Source: Patescibacteria group bacterium (GTDB lineage: Bacteria > Patescibacteriota > Microgenomatia > UBA1400 > PJMF01). Taken from it: a stretch of 64,000 nt of DNA. The notes under the pieces were generated by a model. The model ran no database searches and had not been told where the DNA came from. It saw nothing but the letters and a program-made list of their open reading frames with translations. Position 1 is the first letter of the stretch. Each line of letters opens with the position of its first letter. The DNA is taken from NCBI GenBank assembly GCA_041747555.1, contig JBGTEY010000008.1, positions 3,557 to 67,556 on the forward strand, written 5' to 3'. Positions 17,405-46,521 of the stretch are shown one piece after another. A program made the position numbers and the translations under genes.

Positions 17405-20008
17405 TTACTTGACCTGAGGCTTACGAACCAGAGCCTTTTCTAAGACTTCGGCGACGGTTGCCATCGGGATAAAGGTTATATTTTTCTTAACAGACTCTGG
17501 AATTTCTACAAGATCGCGCTCATTATCCTGTGGAATCAATACAATTTTGCTCCCTGCTCGTTGCGCAGCAATACTCTTTTCTTTAAGCCCGCCAATGCGT
17601 AATACTCGTCCACGGAGCGTCACTTCTCCTGTCATCGCAACATCTCGCCTCACTGCAATACCTGTAAATGCAGAAACAATAGCTGTCGTCATGGTGACAC
17701 CAGCAGACGGACCATCCTTGGGAACTGCTCCCTCAGGAACGTGAATGTGGACATCAGATTTTCGTAACGCTTCTTCGTCAATTCCGAGCGAAGCAGCGTT
17801 TGCTTTGACATATGTCAGGGCAGCCTCAGCAGATTCTTTCATCACATCACCAAGCTTACCAGTTAATTTTACCTTGCCTGCTCCTGGAGTGAGTGCAGCT
17901 TCTATAAAGAGTACGTCCCCACCAACAGATGTCCAAGCAAGACCTGTAGCTTGGCCAACGACGTCTTCCTCATCGGTGAGCGTCACGTCATATTGTTCTG
18001 GTCCTAAGTATTTTTTCAATACTTTTGGGGTAATTCTGATTTTGGTGTTTTTCTTATCCTTACTGAGTTTGACTGCAATGTTCCGCGCTGCTTTCCTCAG
18101 GACCTTGTTGAGTGTTCTTTCAAGCTCTCGGACTCCTGCTTCCCTGGTATACACTTGAATTGTTCTGCGGATCGCTTTAGCAGAGTAGCTGAAGTCTTTG
18201 TCGGTTAAACCATTCACTTCAGTTACTTTTTGGAGTAAATGATCTTGGGCGATATGGAATTTTTCATCTTCTGTATACCCAGCGTAGCGAATAATTTCGA
18301 GGCGATCGCGAAGTGCGGGCGGAATAGTATCGAGCGTGTTGGCGGTAGTTATGAACATGACTTTCGAGAGATCGAAAGGAATATCAAGATAGTGATCTTC
18401 AAACGAAAAGTTTTGTTCTGGATCGAGAGCCTCGAGTAGTGCCGCTGAGGGATCACCGCGGAAATCATTTCCAACTTTATCAATTTCGTCGAGCATAAAC
18501 ACGGGATTCATGCTCCCCGCCTGCTTTATACCGCTGATAATTCTACCTGGCATAGCGCCGACATAGGTGCGTCTGTGCCCTCTTATTTCTGCTTCATCGC
18601 GGATGCCACCGAGGGACATTTTGACAAATTTTCTACCGAGAGCCTCTGCAATAGACCGACCGATACTTGTTTTACCCACACCAGGTGGTCCTACGAAACA
18701 GAGGATGGTTGGCAAATTAGTTTGCGATGCTTTTTTATTGTCAGTTTTTTCTTCAGCTCTCTTTTGCTTAAGCTGAAGTACAGACATGTATTCAAGAATT
18801 CGGTCTTTTACTTCTTCTAAACCATAGTGATTCTTGGCAAGGATTTTTGACGCTTTTTCGATGTCGACATTACCCTTACTAAATGTGCCCCATGGTAATT
18901 CTAAAATAGCATCGAGCCAGCTTCTGAGATATCCTGCTTCTGGATTATTAACAGACATTTGTTTAAGCCGTCGGACTTCTTTGGCAATTTTCTCTTTAAC
19001 TTCTTTTGGAATTTTTGCTTTTTTGAGTTTCTGCTCGTAATCACTCAGTACTTCTTCATCGTCATCTATATCGCCAAGTTCTTTTTGAATTGTTCTGAGG
19101 CGCTCGCGGAGAATATTCTCCCGCATGTGTTTGTCAAACTTTTCTTGTGTTTTGCTGACAACGTCTTTTTCGATTTCCAAAACCTTCATCTCGTGCGCTA
19201 AATGCTCGATGACTTGTTTGAGTCGTTTTTTGACATTTGTGGTCTCTAAAATGTTTTGTTTGGCTTTGGTTTTGATTGCGAGGGTGCTTGCAACCTGATC
19301 AACTAGTTCACCATTGGTGACGCCACCCATGAGCTTCATGAAGTTTAAAAATTCAACCGGTTTGCCCATGTGAACTGCTTTGCGGAATTCTTTTTGAAGG
19401 TGTGCAACCATTGCCTTCATTTCATCATCGTTGGGATCTGGCTCATCAAGTCTAGTAACGGTTGCGACCATTTTGGGAAATGTTGTGGTAAATTGCTCTA
19501 CACGAACACGTCCAATTCCTCGGACAAGCGCGTTAACACTGTCTTCTGTTTTGAGTGTTTTTTCGATAATTGCGAGCGTGCCAATTTGGTACAGATCTGA
19601 GGGGTTTGGTGTGTTAACTTTTGGATCACGTTGGGTGAGGAGCACCACCATTTTTTTATTGGTGTTGGCTTCCTTGATCGCATTGAGTGAAATTTTTCTG
19701 CCGAATGTTAGCACTGACTCAGTACTAGGAAAAAGTACGCCCTCGCGAATTGGAACGACAGGCAGTGTCAACGGACCTTTCTTGCGAGGTCTCTTAACTA
19801 TGCTGATGTTGCCCGATTTCTTGATGGTGAGCGCAGTTTCATCTGAAGAGTCTGTAGTAGTCGTTTCTTCGACTGCTTCAGTTTTTTTAGGCTGATTTAC
19901 ACTCGTATCATTCTTTGAAATTTCACTCATGGCAGTTTTGAGCGTGTCCGTTGTAGTCGACGTTTTCTTCTTGGTTTGCTTGGGTTTTGTGTCGCTATTG
20001 TCTGTCAT
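17405..20008 (-). CDS. lon: ATP-dependent Lon protease, with a low-complexity K/T-rich N-terminal extension
   Basis: GPPGVGKTS Walker A and the catalytic DGPSAGVTMTTAIVSA S16 motif. Confidence 0.85.
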   Translation of the reverse strand: MTDNSDTKPKQTKKKTSTTTDTLKTAMSEISKNDTSVNQPKKTEAVEETTTTDSSDETALTIKKSGNISIVKRPRKKGPLTLPVVPIREGVLFPSTESVLTFGRKISLNAIKEANTNKKMVVLLTQRDPKVNTPNPSDLYQIGTLAIIEKTLKTEDSVNALVRGIGRVRVEQFTTTFPKMVATVTRLDEPDPNDDEMKAMVAHLQKEFRKAVHMGKPVEFLNFMKLMGGVTNGELVDQVASTLAIKTKAKQNILETTNVKKRLKQVIEHLAHEMKVLEIEKDVVSKTQEKFDKHMRENILRERLRTIQKELGDIDDDEEVLSDYEQKLKKAKIPKEVKEKIAKEVRRLKQMSVNNPEAGYLRSWLDAILELPWGTFSKGNVDIEKASKILAKNHYGLEEVKDRILEYMSVLQLKQKRAEEKTDNKKASQTNLPTILCFVGPPGVGKTSIGRSIAEALGRKFVKMSLGGIRDEAEIRGHRRTYVGAMPGRIISGIKQAGSMNPVFMLDEIDKVGNDFRGDPSAALLEALDPEQNFSFEDHYLDIPFDLSKVMFITTANTLDTIPPALRDRLEIIRYAGYTEDEKFHIAQDHLLQKVTEVNGLTDKDFSYSAKAIRRTIQVYTREAGVRELERTLNKVLRKAARNIAVKLSKDKKNTKIRITPKVLKKYLGPEQYDVTLTDEEDVVGQATGLAWTSVGGDVLFIEAALTPGAGKVKLTGKLGDVMKESAEAALTYVKANAASLGIDEEALRKSDVHIHVPEGAVPKDGPSAGVTMTTAIVSAFTGIAVRRDVAMTGEVTLRGRVLRIGGLKEKSIAAQRAGSKIVLIPQDNERDLVEIPESVKKNITFIPMATVAEVLEKALVRKPQVK

Positions 20009-20020
20009 ATGATCTATGAA

Positions 20021-20047
20021 TTAGCATTCTATTTGTTTGACTGCTAA
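20021..20047 (-). promoter_or_regulatory. CIRCE-like inverted repeat, a putative HrcA operator, ending 12 nt upstream of the lon ATG
   Basis: TTAGCAGTC-N9-GAATGCTAA in minus-strand sense, 8/9 + 8/9 matches to the canonical TTAGCACTC-N9-GAGTGCTAA. Confidence 0.45.
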
Positions 20048-20085
20048 AAATCAAGGGGAAAATGAGAAATTGAGAAGTCGTGCTG

Positions 20086-20159
20086 TGGGTGATCATGGAT
20101 TCGAACCATGGACCTCAGTCTTATCAGGACTGCGCTCTAACCAACTGAGCTAATCACCC
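20086..20159 (-). tRNA. tRNA-Ile (GAT)
   Basis: The reverse complement gives GGGTGAT...CTGATAA anticodon loop...GGTTCGAATCC...ATCACCC. Confidence 0.8.
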
Positions 20160-20222
20160 ATAAAATCAATCTGTTAAGAGGCGTTATTGTACCACGACCT
20201 TGTGTGTATCGCGATCCTAGAT

Positions 20223-22784
20223 CTAGATTGTAAGGACGAAGGAATTGTTTTTATAATCGGCAATGACCAAGCCTCCATCTGATACCTGACCAGAGATGAT
20301 CTTGGTCGCGAGTTCATCGAGTATGCTGTTTTGGAGTAGCCGTTTGAGCGGTCGTGCTCCGAATACTTCATCATATCCGGTTCGAGAAAAATACTCGACC
20401 GCGTCATCCGTCACCTTGAGTGAAATCTTTTTCTGGGCGAGCCTTTTTTCAATTTCTTTTATCTGTAATTTCACAATTTCTTTGATTTCCTCCTGGGTGA
20501 GTGGCTGGAAAATAATAATGTCATCGAGCCGATTGATGAATTCTGGTTTAAATGCTTGTTTGAGATGTTCTTGTACGGCTGCGAGTTGGGCGTCAGGATT
20601 ATCTGCATGCGCTGCAATCTCTGAACTCCCCAGATTAGAGGTCAAAATAATGATGGTGTTTTTAAAATCAACGGTGCGACCCTTACTATCAGTAAGTCGT
20701 CCGTCATCAAGAATTTGCAGAAGCACATTAAAAACATCAGAGTGCGCTTTCTCAATTTCATCAAAGAGGAGCACTGAATAGGGGTGTCGTCGAACTGCCT
20801 CGGTGAGTTGCCCGCCTTCTTCATATCCCACATATCCTGGGGGCGATCCAATCAGTCTGGCCACCGCATGTTTTTCCATATATTCGCTCATGTCGATTCT
20901 GATCATCATTTGCTCGTCGTTAAATAAGAAGTCGGCTAATGATTTTGCGAGCTCTGTTTTACCAACACCCGTTGGTCCAAGAAACAGAAATGACCCAATC
21001 GGCTTGCCCTCTTCTTGAATTCCCGCTCGAGAGCGACGAACAGCGTTGGCTACAGCCATGACTGCTTCCTTTTGACCAATTACTCTTTGACCAAGAATTT
21101 CTTCTAGCTTTGTTAATTTTTCACCCTCCTCTGTCAGGAGTTTTTCTACGGGAATGCTCGTCCAGCGGGCGACTATGCTGGCAATGTCGCTTTCAGTGAC
21201 TTCTTCTTTGAGGATCTGTTGGTCTTTTTGAAGGGTATTGAGTTCTTTTTGTGCCTCTTCGACTCCTTTTTGAAGTTGAGGAATCTTGCCATAATTAATT
21301 TCTGCTACGCGCTGTAAATCAAGATTTCGCTCTGCTTGCGTGGCTTCTTCTCTGAGGGCATCGAGTTCTTTGCTTGATTCTTTGATCTTGTCGATGATTT
21401 TCTTTTCGTTTTGCCAGTGAATTTCTAATTGACGGTACTCTTCATTGAGCTCAGATAATAGTTTTTCAATAACTTCTAGGCGATCCTTGGAGCTAGTATC
21501 CTTTTCTTTCTTGAGTGCTTGTTTTTCAATTTCAAGCTGGCGGATTTTTCGCTCTAACTCATCGAGCTCTGCTGGTTTGCTATCAATTGCAATTCGGATT
21601 GCTGATGCTGCTTCATCCATCAAATCAATAGCTTTATCTGGTAAGAAACGATCTGCAATGTATCGATCTGAGAGCTCAACGGCGGCCACGATGGCGTTGT
21701 CGCGGATGCGGACCCCGTGGTGAGCTTCATATTTTTCTTTGATACCGCGCAAAATTGAGATGGCGTCGTCAATGGATGGCTCCTCTACCATCACTGGCTG
21801 GAAGCGTCGTTCGAGGGCAGCGTCTTTCTCTACATATTTTCGATATTCTTTAAGTGTGGTGGCGCCAACTGTTCGGAGTGATCCGCGGGCGAGCGCGGGT
21901 TTTAGCAAGTTGCCGGCGTCAGTTGAGCCTTCTTGTGCACCAGCACCCACAATTGTGTGAAGTTCATCTATAAAGAGGATAATTTCACCTTCAGCGGATT
22001 CTATTTCTTTAATAACTGCTTTGAGGCGGTCTTCAAATTCCCCCCTATATTTTGCGCCAGCGATGAGGGCGCCGAGGTCGAGGCTTAAAATACGCTTGTG
22101 TTTGAGAGCGTCTGGAATGTCGCCGTCAATGATTTTTTTTGCCAAGCCTTCGACGATTGCAGTTTTTCCAGTGCCTGGCTCTCCGACGAGTACCGGATTG
22201 TTTTTAGTTCTGCGGGACAGTATCTGGGTGATTCTTCTGATTTCAGCGTCACGACCGATGACGGGGTCGATTTTTCCGTCTCGCGCGAGTTGGGTGAAAT
22301 CGATGGTGTATTTTTCGAGCGATTGATATTTGCCTTCTGGGTCTCGATCGGTGACTTTTTGTGTACCGCGGACGTCTTTGAGAACGTCGCTCACCTGTTT
22401 TTTGGTTACATCGAATGATTTTTTGATTTCTGATTGGTCTAGCAGCGCTAATAAGAGGTGCTCGGTGCTGACATACTCGTCTCTGAGCTTGCCCGCTTCG
22501 CTTTCTGCGTTTGTGAAAACGGCATTGAGTTCACGTGAAAGCTGTGGCTGGACGCTTTCAGACAATGTGGGTTGTTTGGTGAGTATGTCTTTTATTGATT
22601 GGGCAACTTTTGTCGGGTCTGTGTCTAGTTTTTGTAAAATTGAAGGCACGATTCCACCAGGCTGATTGACCAGCACAAGCGCCAAGTGCTCTGGTTGAAT
22701 TTGAGCGTGTGAAAGTTTGTTTGCTAACTCGAGTGCACCCTGGAGGGCTTCTGCGGATTTGGTGGTTAGTTTTTGGAGATTCAT
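20223..22784 (-). CDS. clpB: Chaperone ClpB (start taken at MNLQKLT)
   Basis: Two AAA+ modules ([16 protein letters not shown]), a coiled-coil middle domain, and a Clp N-domain. Confidence 0.85.
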
Positions 22785-22858
22785 GACGTACTTCTCGCAA
22801 TTGGTTCGTACTACAACTGTAATTGTAATAAAGAACACTATTTGTGTGAAGTAGCAAA

Positions 22859-22885
22859 TTAGCAGTTACAATGCATGATTGCTAA
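22859..22885 (-). promoter_or_regulatory. Second CIRCE-like element, 75–100 nt upstream of clpB
   Basis: TTAGCAGTT-N9-GATTGCTAA, nearly identical to the lon element. Confidence 0.35.
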
Positions 22886-23079
22886 TGAGCCTTTCTATCG
22901 ACTATATTGACAGATATAATGTTATAGGATAAAATTATTTTGTACCTCTAGCTCTATCTAACTACGTAAAAATACATGCTATTTGACACGCGGATGAATG
23001 AGCGGGGTACCTGTACCTTAACAAGTGAGTGATAAGAATAATTAAGAAGCAAGTTGCTCCGATTTCTCTATCTCTTTTA

Positions 23080-23165: not shown

Positions 23166-23825
23166 ATGAGAAAGATGTTTTTGCTACTAGTAGCAGCAAT
23201 TCTGGTCATGCTAGCTGCATTGGCCAGAAGCGCAGAAGAACCAGTTCGGGGGCAGACGGAGAGTTCCTTATGCCTCCCCGTAGTTGCCAATCAGCGTGAG
23301 CTCGATTGGAATTACGGGTACGACGGTCGGGAAAAATCCCACAATGCCGTCTTACCTGAAGAGTTTATAGGTTGGTCACTATTCAGCTCCTGCGAAAGTG
23401 GGAAGTTGACCAGTGAGGTAGCATCCTTCGCCTCAAAGGGCTGGGCGAGGTTGCCCTACGGAGCAGGTCCAAACTGTTTCGGAAAGCTTTCCAATCCCGA
23501 TGGAGAGGTGGTATACACCTTAAACCCACAGGGCTGGCTCAAAGCCAGCGGGGAGCTGGTACTGGTCAGTCCAGTACCAAATGTCTGGAATCAAGTCCAG
23601 ACATGGAAAATTGAGGGAGGCGTGACGCCCTTGAACACGCAAGCAGTAGTGGTTTTCTGGGAGAGGAACTTGCACGAAGTAGTATTCCTGCAAAACGGAA
23701 TATTTACCTTCGCGCCTCCACCTGAGGCGAGCAACTGGATGTCAACTTTACTGCGGCTCAACATAGGCGGAGACACCTATCTCTCCGAATATGTAACGCT
23801 TGGGGGAGCCCTCCCCCCGCCCTAA
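23166..23825 (+). CDS. Secreted Cys-containing hypothetical protein with a signal peptide
   Basis: N-terminal hydrophobic signal (MRKMFLLLVAAILVMLAALA), RBS AGGAG 8 nt upstream, and a strong terminator downstream. Confidence 0.45.
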   Translation: MRKMFLLLVAAILVMLAALARSAEEPVRGQTESSLCLPVVANQRELDWNYGYDGREKSHNAVLPEEFIGWSLFSSCESGKLTSEVASFASKGWARLPYGAGPNCFGKLSNPDGEVVYTLNPQGWLKASGELVLVSPVPNVWNQVQTWKIEGGVTPLNTQAVVVFWERNLHEVVFLQNGIFTFAPPPEASNWMSTLLRLNIGGDTYLSEYVTLGGALPPP

Positions 23826-24096: not shown

Positions 24097-25585
<1,489 letters not shown>

Positions 25586-25729
25586 AAAATTTATTAGCGT
25601 TATATATTAATTGATTAAAATCAATTGGATTTCACTGTTAACCTGCGAAAGAGATTCGCAGGCGCTATTTGGATAGGTGACCCAAATAGCTAAGAAATTG
25701 AACGGTTTCTACCATCGTATGTATTACTG

Positions 25730-45747: not shown

Positions 45748-46368
45748 CTAATACTTAAATTTTCGGATCAATCCAACGACTCTTCCCTGAATTTGAACGT
45801 TCGTTGCATAAATTGGGCTCATGGATGAGTTTGCTGGCTCGAGACGAATGCGGGTCATTTCTTTGTAGTACCGTTTGAGTGTGGCGAAGCCATTTTCTAA
45901 TAATGCCACGACGATGTCGCCGTTTTTGACGTCATGTGTTTCTTCTATAACCACAAAGTCACCGTCATCAATGTGATCTTCAATCATTGATTGTCCTTTG
46001 ACTTGAAGTACATATGCTCGTTTTTTCCCAGTTACCAGATGTGGTGAGACTTTAAACGTCGCATCCTGATCTGGATGTGGTTCGATTGGTGAACCAGCTG
46101 CAATGTATCCAAGGAGCGGCAAATCAATACTCTCAGACATATTGAGAAACGTTCGATCGACAAGCTCAATACCGCGAACCGCGCCCTCGTGTTTTTTAAT
46201 TACTTTTTTGCGTTGTAATGCCTGGAGGTGTTCGTGGACTGTTGCTAGTGAAGATACACCAATTGCTTGAGCCATTTCTTTGAGCGTCGGGGAAAATCCG
46301 TTTTTTTGGATATACTGGGCAATAAAGTCGACTAATTGCCGTTGACGTTTATAAAGTGTGACTGCCAT
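45748..46368 (-). CDS. lexA: LexA repressor (start taken at MAVTLYK, RBS AAAGGA 8 nt upstream)
   Basis: N-terminal winged HTH and the C-terminal S24 peptidase (Ala-Gly cleavage region with Ser/Lys dyad blocks GQSMIEDHI...DIVVAL). Confidence 0.7.
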   Translation of the reverse strand: MAVTLYKRQRQLVDFIAQYIQKNGFSPTLKEMAQAIGVSSLATVHEHLQALQRKKVIKKHEGAVRGIELVDRTFLNMSESIDLPLLGYIAAGSPIEPHPDQDATFKVSPHLVTGKKRAYVLQVKGQSMIEDHIDDGDFVVIEETHDVKNGDIVVALLENGFATLKRYYKEMTRIRLEPANSSMSPIYATNVQIQGRVVGLIRKFKY

Positions 46369-46392
46369 ATATAATCCTTTGTGTGTTATTTC

Positions 46393-46415
46393 CTTCGGGC
46401 GTAAGCTTCCCGAAG
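46393..46415 (-). promoter_or_regulatory. Inverted repeat CTTCGGG-N9-CCCGAAG, with internal AAGCTT, directly upstream of lexA; candidate operator
   Basis: Direct sequence reading; no known SOS-box consensus matched. Confidence 0.2.
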
Positions 46416-46521
46416 CTATCAACAGAATAGCCGAAGAACCCCCAAACAATCAATCGGATCTTAATGGATAAATAACTATAAAACTATATCAAATTGATTA
46501 TCAGCCGAATAGAAACCGAAA

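Follow-up and report, generated by a model that had tools for sequence, protein, structure and literature searches.

CIRCE-type operators upstream of lon and clpB suggest HrcA-type control of a protease and a disaggregase in Patescibacteria

Introduction

Does the chaperone repressor HrcA control lon, which encodes a protease, and clpB, which encodes a disaggregase, in Patescibacteria? The question is raised by a stretch of 64,000 nucleotides (nt) from an ultra-small, uncultured Patescibacteria group bacterium (NCBI GenBank assembly GCA_041747555.1, contig JBGTEY010000008.1, positions 3,557 to 67,556 of the forward strand), hereafter called the window, in which an inverted repeat resembling CIRCE (the inverted repeat controlling the expression of chaperones), the operator of HrcA, stands upstream of each of the two genes. 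An earlier note on this DNA had placed the repeats at 20021-20047 and 22859-22885 and had taken them as the mark of a lineage-specific HrcA regulon. The literature that we searched contained no paper linking HrcA or CIRCE to the Candidate Phyla Radiation (CPR)/Patescibacteria.

Here we find that the two repeats are the only sites of their kind in the window, that they recur in orthologous positions together with promoter hexamers, and that among the sampled clpB loci they are nearly restricted to Patescibacteria. From these sites we infer the promoters that they accompany, the identity of the binding protein, the repression and the induction by heat.

Results

The repeats were compared with the canonical CIRCE consensus, TTAGCACTC-N9-GAGTGCTAA, and with its bare core, TTAGCA-N15-TGCTAA. 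Read on the minus strand, the lon site is TTAGCAGTC-AAACAAATA-GAATGCTAA and the clpB site is TTAGCAATC-ATGCATTGT-AACTGCTAA. Both keep the hexamers TTAGCA and TGCTAA intact and the 9-nt spacer exact; the lon site departs from the consensus at 2 of 18 positions and has 8 of 9 arm positions complementary, the clpB site at 3 of 18 with 7 of 9 complementary. The earlier note had claimed a match of 8/9 + 8/9 to CIRCE, which holds for the lon site (16/18) and fails for the clpB site (15/18, that is 7/9 + 8/9). The mutual identity of 16/18 that it had reported is obtained when the lon site is read on the minus strand and the clpB site on the plus strand, whereas in the orientation of the genes it falls to 15/18. 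The placement upstream of the two genes was confirmed: the lon site ends 12 nt before the ATG of lon, and the clpB site lies 75-101 nt before the ATG of clpB (22784).

The window holds no third site of this kind. The pattern given in the earlier note, the canonical CIRCE at up to three mismatches and the bare core at up to one mismatch were each found at these two sites only, and the exact core occurs twice, again at these sites; the chance expectation, taken from 100 dinucleotide-preserving shuffles, was 0.00, 0.00, 0.15 and 0, respectively. With 2 matches observed against 0.00 in shuffles for the note's own pattern, its frequency at the scale of the window is not a random one.

The lon operator is intimately connected with the predicted promoter of the gene (Table 1). 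It starts one base past the -35 box and occupies both the promoter spacer and the -10 box, so that TAGAAT takes its first two bases from the end of the operator spacer and the other four from the beginning of the right arm. An alignment of 14 lon upstream regions retains as invariant blocks only TTG, TAGCA four bases further on, and TAGA.TGCTAA, where the dot is a variable position; the -35 box is TTGATT in the window and TTGACA in most of the aligned loci, and the -10 box is TAGAAT or TAGAGT. Since the right-arm variant GAATGCTAA, compared with the canonical GAGTGCTAA, converts TAGAGT to the better TAGAAT, the G-to-A variant is explained: on the predicted promoter, the variant bases at lon are those of a right arm that doubles as the -10 box, and are not drift. 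In four of the sampled loci, which are cited here by L numbers (L002, L007, L008 and L219), the ATG follows TGCTAA by 3-4 nt and the -10 box by only 8-9 nt, which suggests that the lon mRNA is leaderless there. In the window the ATG is 17 nt past the -10 box, and no Shine-Dalgarno sequence precedes it.

This arrangement extends well beyond the close relatives of the window. An operator stands upstream of lon in 21 of the 21 loci examined, six of them from close relatives and 15 from more distant Patescibacteria, whose Lon proteins are 43-54% identical to that of the window and whose named representatives are Patescibacteria, Levybacteria and Microgenomates. For eight of the 15, protein identity was the only basis of choice; each of these has the promoter-embedded operator, and their 179 kb contain no other core. 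The remaining seven came from a pattern scan of metagenomes. The 9-nt-spacer form of the promoter-embedded module is TTGNNNNTTAGCA-N10-TAGANTGCTAA; the pattern scanned for had 11 N between TTAGCA and TAGA and therefore demanded a 10-nt spacer, and seven of its nine matches lie directly upstream of lon in the promoter-embedded arrangement. Altogether eight lon operators (L086-L089, L092-L094 and L221) have the 10-nt spacer, TTAGCA-N16-TGCTAA, in modules that are otherwise identical; among the eight loci sampled irrespective of spacing, one (L221) is of this kind. Comparison of the Lon sequences places the 10-nt-spacer loci interspersed among relatives with the 9-nt spacer, so the extra base would either be tolerated or have arisen repeatedly.

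At clpB the relation between operator and promoter is different. In the window 8 nt separate the end of the operator from the predicted -35 box downstream of it (7-8 nt across the subgroup of the window), which would put the operator at about -44 to -70. When the upstream regions of the window and its four closest relatives with data are aligned, only ATTAGCA, TGCTAA, CTTcACA and TACAAT are invariant; the sequence between and around these blocks has diverged in the five species, while the distance from operator to promoter is fixed. This fixed distance, together with the perfect outer hexamers in all five, argues for selection on the clpB site. In each arm the inner three bases are variable in the subgroup, and therefore the clpB operator may be weaker than that of lon. 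In other Patescibacteria the clpB operator is found straight after the -10 box (L008, L011, L014), overlapping the -10 box (L065, L075, L009) or overlapping the -35 box (L010).

The clpB loci were collected by a ClpB similarity scan in which each GTDB species was represented by one genome. Relatives at 66-72% identity are the closest and come from metagenome-assembled genomes (MAGs) whose titles read Patescibacteria group bacterium, Candidatus Pacebacteria or similar; a few are titled 'Pseudomonadales', evidently by mis-assignment, and have the same gene order. The remoter ones, at 53-59%, belong to Buchananbacteria, Uhrbacteria and Saccharibacteria. CIRCE was found upstream of clpB in 14 of the 15 Patescibacteria loci, and the core TTAGCA-N15-TGCTAA was confined to Patescibacteria among the clpB loci, being present in none of the 66 others. 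When up to four mismatches to CIRCE were allowed, 302 kb of Patescibacteria DNA, the window included, gave 19 sites, of which 17 immediately precede clpB or lon and one falls inside clpB (a core-only site 343 nt upstream of clpB in L005 is outside this count); the same scan of 1.23 Mb of non-Patescibacteria clpB loci gave a single site, also upstream of clpB. The spacing of the hexamers is equally strict: in 392 kb of Patescibacteria DNA it was 15 in 19 of 19 cases, and spacings of 11-14 and 16-20 never occurred.

The perfect canonical element TTAGCACTC-N9-GAGTGCTAA stands upstream of clpB in L011, L065 and L075, and L010 and L014 are one mismatch away from it, while the subgroup sites of L002, L006 and L007 have 3, 4 and 4 mismatches and that of L004 is beyond the four-mismatch limit of the scan. 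Thus the CIRCE identity proposed in the earlier note receives strong comparative support, both from the perfect elements among Patescibacteria relatives and from the absence of the element in 65 of the 66 non-Patescibacteria clpB loci.

A symmetric variant, TTATCACTC-N9-GAGTGATAA, was observed directly upstream of clpB in L009 (9959-9985), from a MAG that bears the title Peribacteraceae; the spacer of this variant contains a TACAAT -10 box. The change keeps the palindrome in both arms, which hints at co-evolution with its regulator.

The operators of two other heat-shock repressors were considered and rejected. The CtsR box (GGTCAAA-NAN-GGTCAAA) had two weak matches in the window against 2.7 expected by chance, none of them near lon or clpB; the HspR-associated inverted repeat (HAIR; CTTGAGT-N7-ACTCAAG) had six weak matches against 3.4 expected, none in either upstream region and one inside clpB. 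These scans covered repressor boxes, and sigma-32-type promoters were not searched for.

Table 1. Positions of the operators, predicted promoters and neighbouring genes in the window
Feature	Positions	Strand	Description and evidence
CIRCE-type operator of lon (site 1)	20021-20047	.	plus-strand letters TTAGCATTCTATTTGTTTGACTGCTAA
CIRCE-type operator of clpB (site 2)	22859-22885	.	plus-strand letters TTAGCAGTTACAATGCATGATTGCTAA
Predicted lon core promoter	20026-20054	-	-35 TTGATT 20054-20049, 17-nt spacer, -10 TAGAAT 20031-20026; consensus scan
Predicted clpB core promoter	22822-22850	-	-35 TTCACA 22850-22845, 17-nt spacer, -10 TACAAT 22827-22822; consensus scan
lon (endopeptidase La, 867 aa)	17405-20008	-	NCBIfam TIGR00763, 896 bits, residues 83-860; Pfam domains also found
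tRNA-Ile(GAT), between clpB and lon	20085-20159	-	ARAGORN and Rfam
Extended -10-like TGgTACAAT, upstream of tRNA-Ile	20186-20194	-	read from the sequence
clpB (ATP-dependent disaggregase, 853 aa; ATG 22784)	20223-22784	-	NCBIfam TIGR03346, 1285 bits, above the curated cut-off
16S rRNA gene, upstream of clpB (context, outside the operator system)	24099-25587	-	Rfam RF00177, 1445 bits

The surrounding genes are listed in Table 1; the exact 853-aa ClpB product of the window is on record in the protein collection, and trigger factor, LexA, UvrABC and glycolysis genes are encoded elsewhere in the window. The same-strand order clpB - tRNA-Ile - CIRCE - lon, which the earlier note had singled out, was borne out, with all genes on the minus strand, and it recurs in relatives: clpB - tRNA-Ile(GAT) - operator - lon is also the order in L002, L003, L006, L007 and L008. 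The extended -10-like element upstream of the tRNA is possibly its own constitutive promoter; a TACAAT resembling it stands in L002 and L007 after the stop codon of clpB.

The larger order 16S - open reading frame(s) (ORFs) - clpB - tRNA-Ile - lon is shared with L005, L006, L007 and L008. In most bacteria tRNA-Ile(GAT) is located in the 16S-23S spacer. There is no 23S gene anywhere in the window, and the region from 16S to tRNA-Ile resembles an rRNA operon that has been broken up, in which clpB has come to stand between the 16S gene and the spacer tRNA. The part of the 16S model from 753 to 1533 occupies 1653 nt in L006 (1-1653), which implies an insertion of about 870 nt, and in L007 a match to group II intron domains D1-D4 (1005-1088) lies just downstream of the 16S gene.

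The Lon protein of the window begins with a low-complexity extension, encoded by the first ~80 codons (19769-20008). Such extensions, of 45-80 aa and rich in K, T, S, D and E, precede the conserved LPVVPIREGVLFP of the substrate-binding domain in the subgroup of the window (L002, L003, L006, L007, L008) and are missing from the Levybacteria-like Lon proteins.

On the other side of the clpB operator, 22 nt past it, a near-consensus divergent promoter was noticed on the plus strand at 22907-22935 (TTGACA, 17 nt, TAAAAT; 11 of 12 matches), which the clpB operator could in principle also influence. It faces an ORF of 219 aa (23166-23825), which was rejected as a local regulator, as it has no family match and its N-terminus is signal-peptide-like. 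A homologue of LexA, with an S24 peptidase and a LexA DNA-binding domain (45748-46449, minus strand), is encoded next to uvrA, uvrB and uvrC, and in this reduced genome the SOS regulon may be the second that can be predicted.

Perfect canonical CIRCE elements are also present in viral contigs, with at least 120 matches in IMG/VR (L095-L214). Among the matches listed, about 30 adjoin groES/groEL and most adjoin nothing recognised by the seeds used; many are no more than about 110 nt from the beginning of the locus, sample 3300045988 being a notable case. They may be provirus boundaries cut beside host chaperone operons. In some of the listed loci the element is present in tandem copies, as in L151, where three copies stand at 49-nt intervals.

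Discussion

Our data make it probable that lon and clpB of the window are repressed by an HrcA-type protein through CIRCE operators. HrcA is by far the likeliest partner of the two operators, because the perfect canonical CIRCE stands in three Patescibacteria promoters. Both repeats would then be CIRCE-class DNA operators, and the gene for the dimeric HrcA-type repressor that binds them would lie in another part of the genome. The lon operator sits within the predicted core promoter, and therefore the bound repressor would cover the whole of that promoter and exclude RNA polymerase; at clpB the repressor would bind upstream of the -35 box and hinder the docking of the polymerase less directly. 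As unfolded proteins accumulate, the repressor would lose its activity and both genes would be turned on. In the systems that have been studied, inactivation proceeds by titration of GroEL away from HrcA.

The nearest parallel is provided by the Mollicutes, in which the HrcA regulon comprises clpB, lon, dnaK and dnaJ, as described for Mycoplasma gallisepticum (PMC4245973) and Spiroplasma melliferum (PMC5138195), with lon also for Mycoplasma pneumoniae (PMC7737663). In M. gallisepticum, M. pneumoniae, M. genitalium and S. melliferum, as here, a small genome with few transcription factors has CIRCE upstream of both clpB and lon, and in M. gallisepticum the elements are described upstream of chaperone promoters (PMC4245973), as at clpB of the window. 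The two cases also differ: in Mollicutes the binding of HrcA and the induction by heat were demonstrated experimentally, whereas in Patescibacteria both are predicted from the sequence, and in the latter the lon operator is fused to the predicted core promoter, with the right arm supplying the -10 box, and leaderless lon transcripts are suggested in several relatives, where the start codon comes within 4-9 nt. To call the regulon lineage-specific, as the earlier note had done, is consequently an overstatement: CIRCE at clpB and lon is documented in Mollicutes (PMC4245973, PMC5138195, PMC7737663), and in our data it is phylum-wide.

The comparison with Bacillus subtilis (hrcA-grpE-dnaK-dnaJ and groESL) is of another kind. 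The likeness lies in TTAGCACTC-N9-GAGTGCTAA at sigma-A-type heat-shock promoters and in a presumed occlusion by the repressor that folding stress relieves. In B. subtilis, CIRCE serves the dnaK and groE operons only, and the element stands between the transcription start and the start codon; to our knowledge this organism has no clpB, and its lon and clp genes are under CtsR or other control. Here, by contrast, lon and clpB make up the known targets, and the operators take other positions relative to the promoter. The view that lon and clpB are unusual targets of CIRCE is thus correct with respect to Bacillus-type systems, but not in general, given the regulon of the Mollicutes. The CtsR, HspR/HAIR and sigma-32 systems regulate the same genes to the same physiological purpose through different cis elements.

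Several observations weigh against HrcA-type repression of lon and clpB. The promoters of both genes are predicted from consensus matches only. The clpB operator has 3 mismatches and arms that are 7/9 complementary, and its position upstream of the predicted -35 box is unusual for a simple repressor. The 10-nt spacer of some related lon operators is at odds with the textbook geometry of CIRCE, in which 9 nt are invariant, and clpB of L045, a Saccharibacteria locus, is not preceded by a site. Furthermore, hrcA (PF01628/TIGR00331) was found neither in the window nor, by tblastn, in the fetched Patescibacteria loci, and the same holds for groES, groEL, dnaK and grpE, the genes at the core of a normal HrcA regulon.

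In the 64 kb window, Pfam and NCBIfam models applied to about 55 ORFs, with a permissive re-scan of the 10 unassigned ones, revealed no hrcA, groES, groEL, dnaK, grpE or dnaJ. When seeds for the chaperones and HrcA, taken from E. coli and B. subtilis, were run by tblastn against all fetched loci, matches were obtained only in Actinobacteria-like, Firmicutes-like or other non-Patescibacteria DNA, and eight Patescibacteria lon neighbourhoods (10 kb flanks, on contigs of up to 1.08 Mb) had no chaperone gene or hrcA nearby. At the protein level, the B. subtilis HrcA query gave only Bacillaceae among the matches listed, a profile of the HrcA N-terminal domain gave fragments from Actinobacteria and Firmicutes only, and an exhaustive search of representatives gave 12,164 HrcA-like proteins; among the matches listed, which were the 150 most Clostridia-like, there was none from Patescibacteria. 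The AlphaFold model of HrcA was poor, with a predicted local distance difference test score (pLDDT) of 51. The Patescibacteria DNA that was read amounts to about 0.5 Mb in scattered stretches of 20 kb and contains no whole genome. That hrcA went unseen reflects this limited reach, with scattered loci and with Firmicutes making up most of the matches listed, and does not show that the gene is absent.

A bolder version of HrcA-type control deserves some attention, although we regard it as a tentative proposal that is rather unlikely to hold in full. According to it, Patescibacteria as a whole would possess a minimal heat-shock circuit, in which HrcA acts directly on clpB and on lon, the gene of the main protease, the operator is fused into the core promoter of an often leaderless lon, and the regulator tolerates, or has become adapted to, a non-canonical geometry, by which we mean the 10-nt spacer (about one in eight Levybacteria-like lon promoters), the TTATCA/TGATAA arms of one lineage and the clpB site upstream of the -35 box. 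In its extreme form the binding protein would be other than HrcA.

This extreme form leads to the first of the competing explanations, namely that the repeats are operators for another Patescibacteria DNA-binding protein, which recognises TTAGCA-N15-TGCTAA, and that HrcA is absent or uninvolved. One would argue that hrcA is in none of the reachable sequences, that the inner three arm bases, which are part of the canonical CIRCE, are free at the clpB sites of the subgroup while the outer hexamers alone are fixed, and that 10-nt spacers and symmetric arm changes (L009) exist. However, the 18/18 CIRCE at three Patescibacteria clpB promoters is connected by intermediates to the sites of the window, lon and clpB are classic HrcA targets in Mollicutes (PMC4245973), and hrcA has gone unseen only in the scattered loci described above. 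We therefore consider such a protein improbable.

We give as little credit to the notion that the lon operator alone is functional and that the clpB repeat of the subgroup is a decaying or repurposed relic. The clpB site has 3 mismatches in the window and 3-4 or more in its relatives, it lies 7-8 nt upstream of the -35 box and thus outside the core promoter, and a gradual loss of CIRCE copies is known in S. melliferum (PMC5138195). Decay is nevertheless difficult to reconcile with outer hexamers, a 15-nt core spacing and a distance to the -35 box that are invariant in five species despite diverged flanks, and CIRCE elements upstream of promoters are likewise reported in M. gallisepticum (PMC4245973).

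That the repeats work at the level of RNA, folding into a hairpin that ends transcription past clpB or the tRNA, serves in processing or affects mRNA stability, appears very unlikely. Both repeats can be folded as imperfect hairpins, and the CIRCE of B. subtilis, which lies in the 5' untranslated region, also affects mRNA stability. But these structures are weak (free energies of -6.9 and -10.0 kcal/mol and z-scores of -1.8 and -1.2), neither repeat is followed by a T-run and the terminator scan was blank there, the changes in the arms among relatives are not compensatory, and the clpB site is upstream of its predicted promoter and most of the lon site upstream of its predicted start, hence both would be outside their own transcripts. 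Finally, chance inverted repeats in AT-rich intergenic DNA, for which only the short length of the repeats would speak, are refuted by the two sites observed against none in 100 shuffles and by the comparative data, with orthologous conservation in more than 30 loci and the constant spacing of 15.

HrcA-type repression of lon and clpB through CIRCE thus remains the reading that we favour. It does not change the understanding of the HrcA system itself; what it adds is a second, independent lineage of reduced genomes, after the Mollicutes, in which a protease and a disaggregase are placed under the chaperone repressor. The CPR/Patescibacteria are mostly uncultured and their transcriptional regulation is almost unstudied. 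The conserved operator at lon and clpB is one of the few regulons that can be predicted with confidence in this phylum, and the operators supply, in addition, a view of Patescibacteria promoter anatomy, with predicted -35 and -10 boxes and putative leaderless starts.

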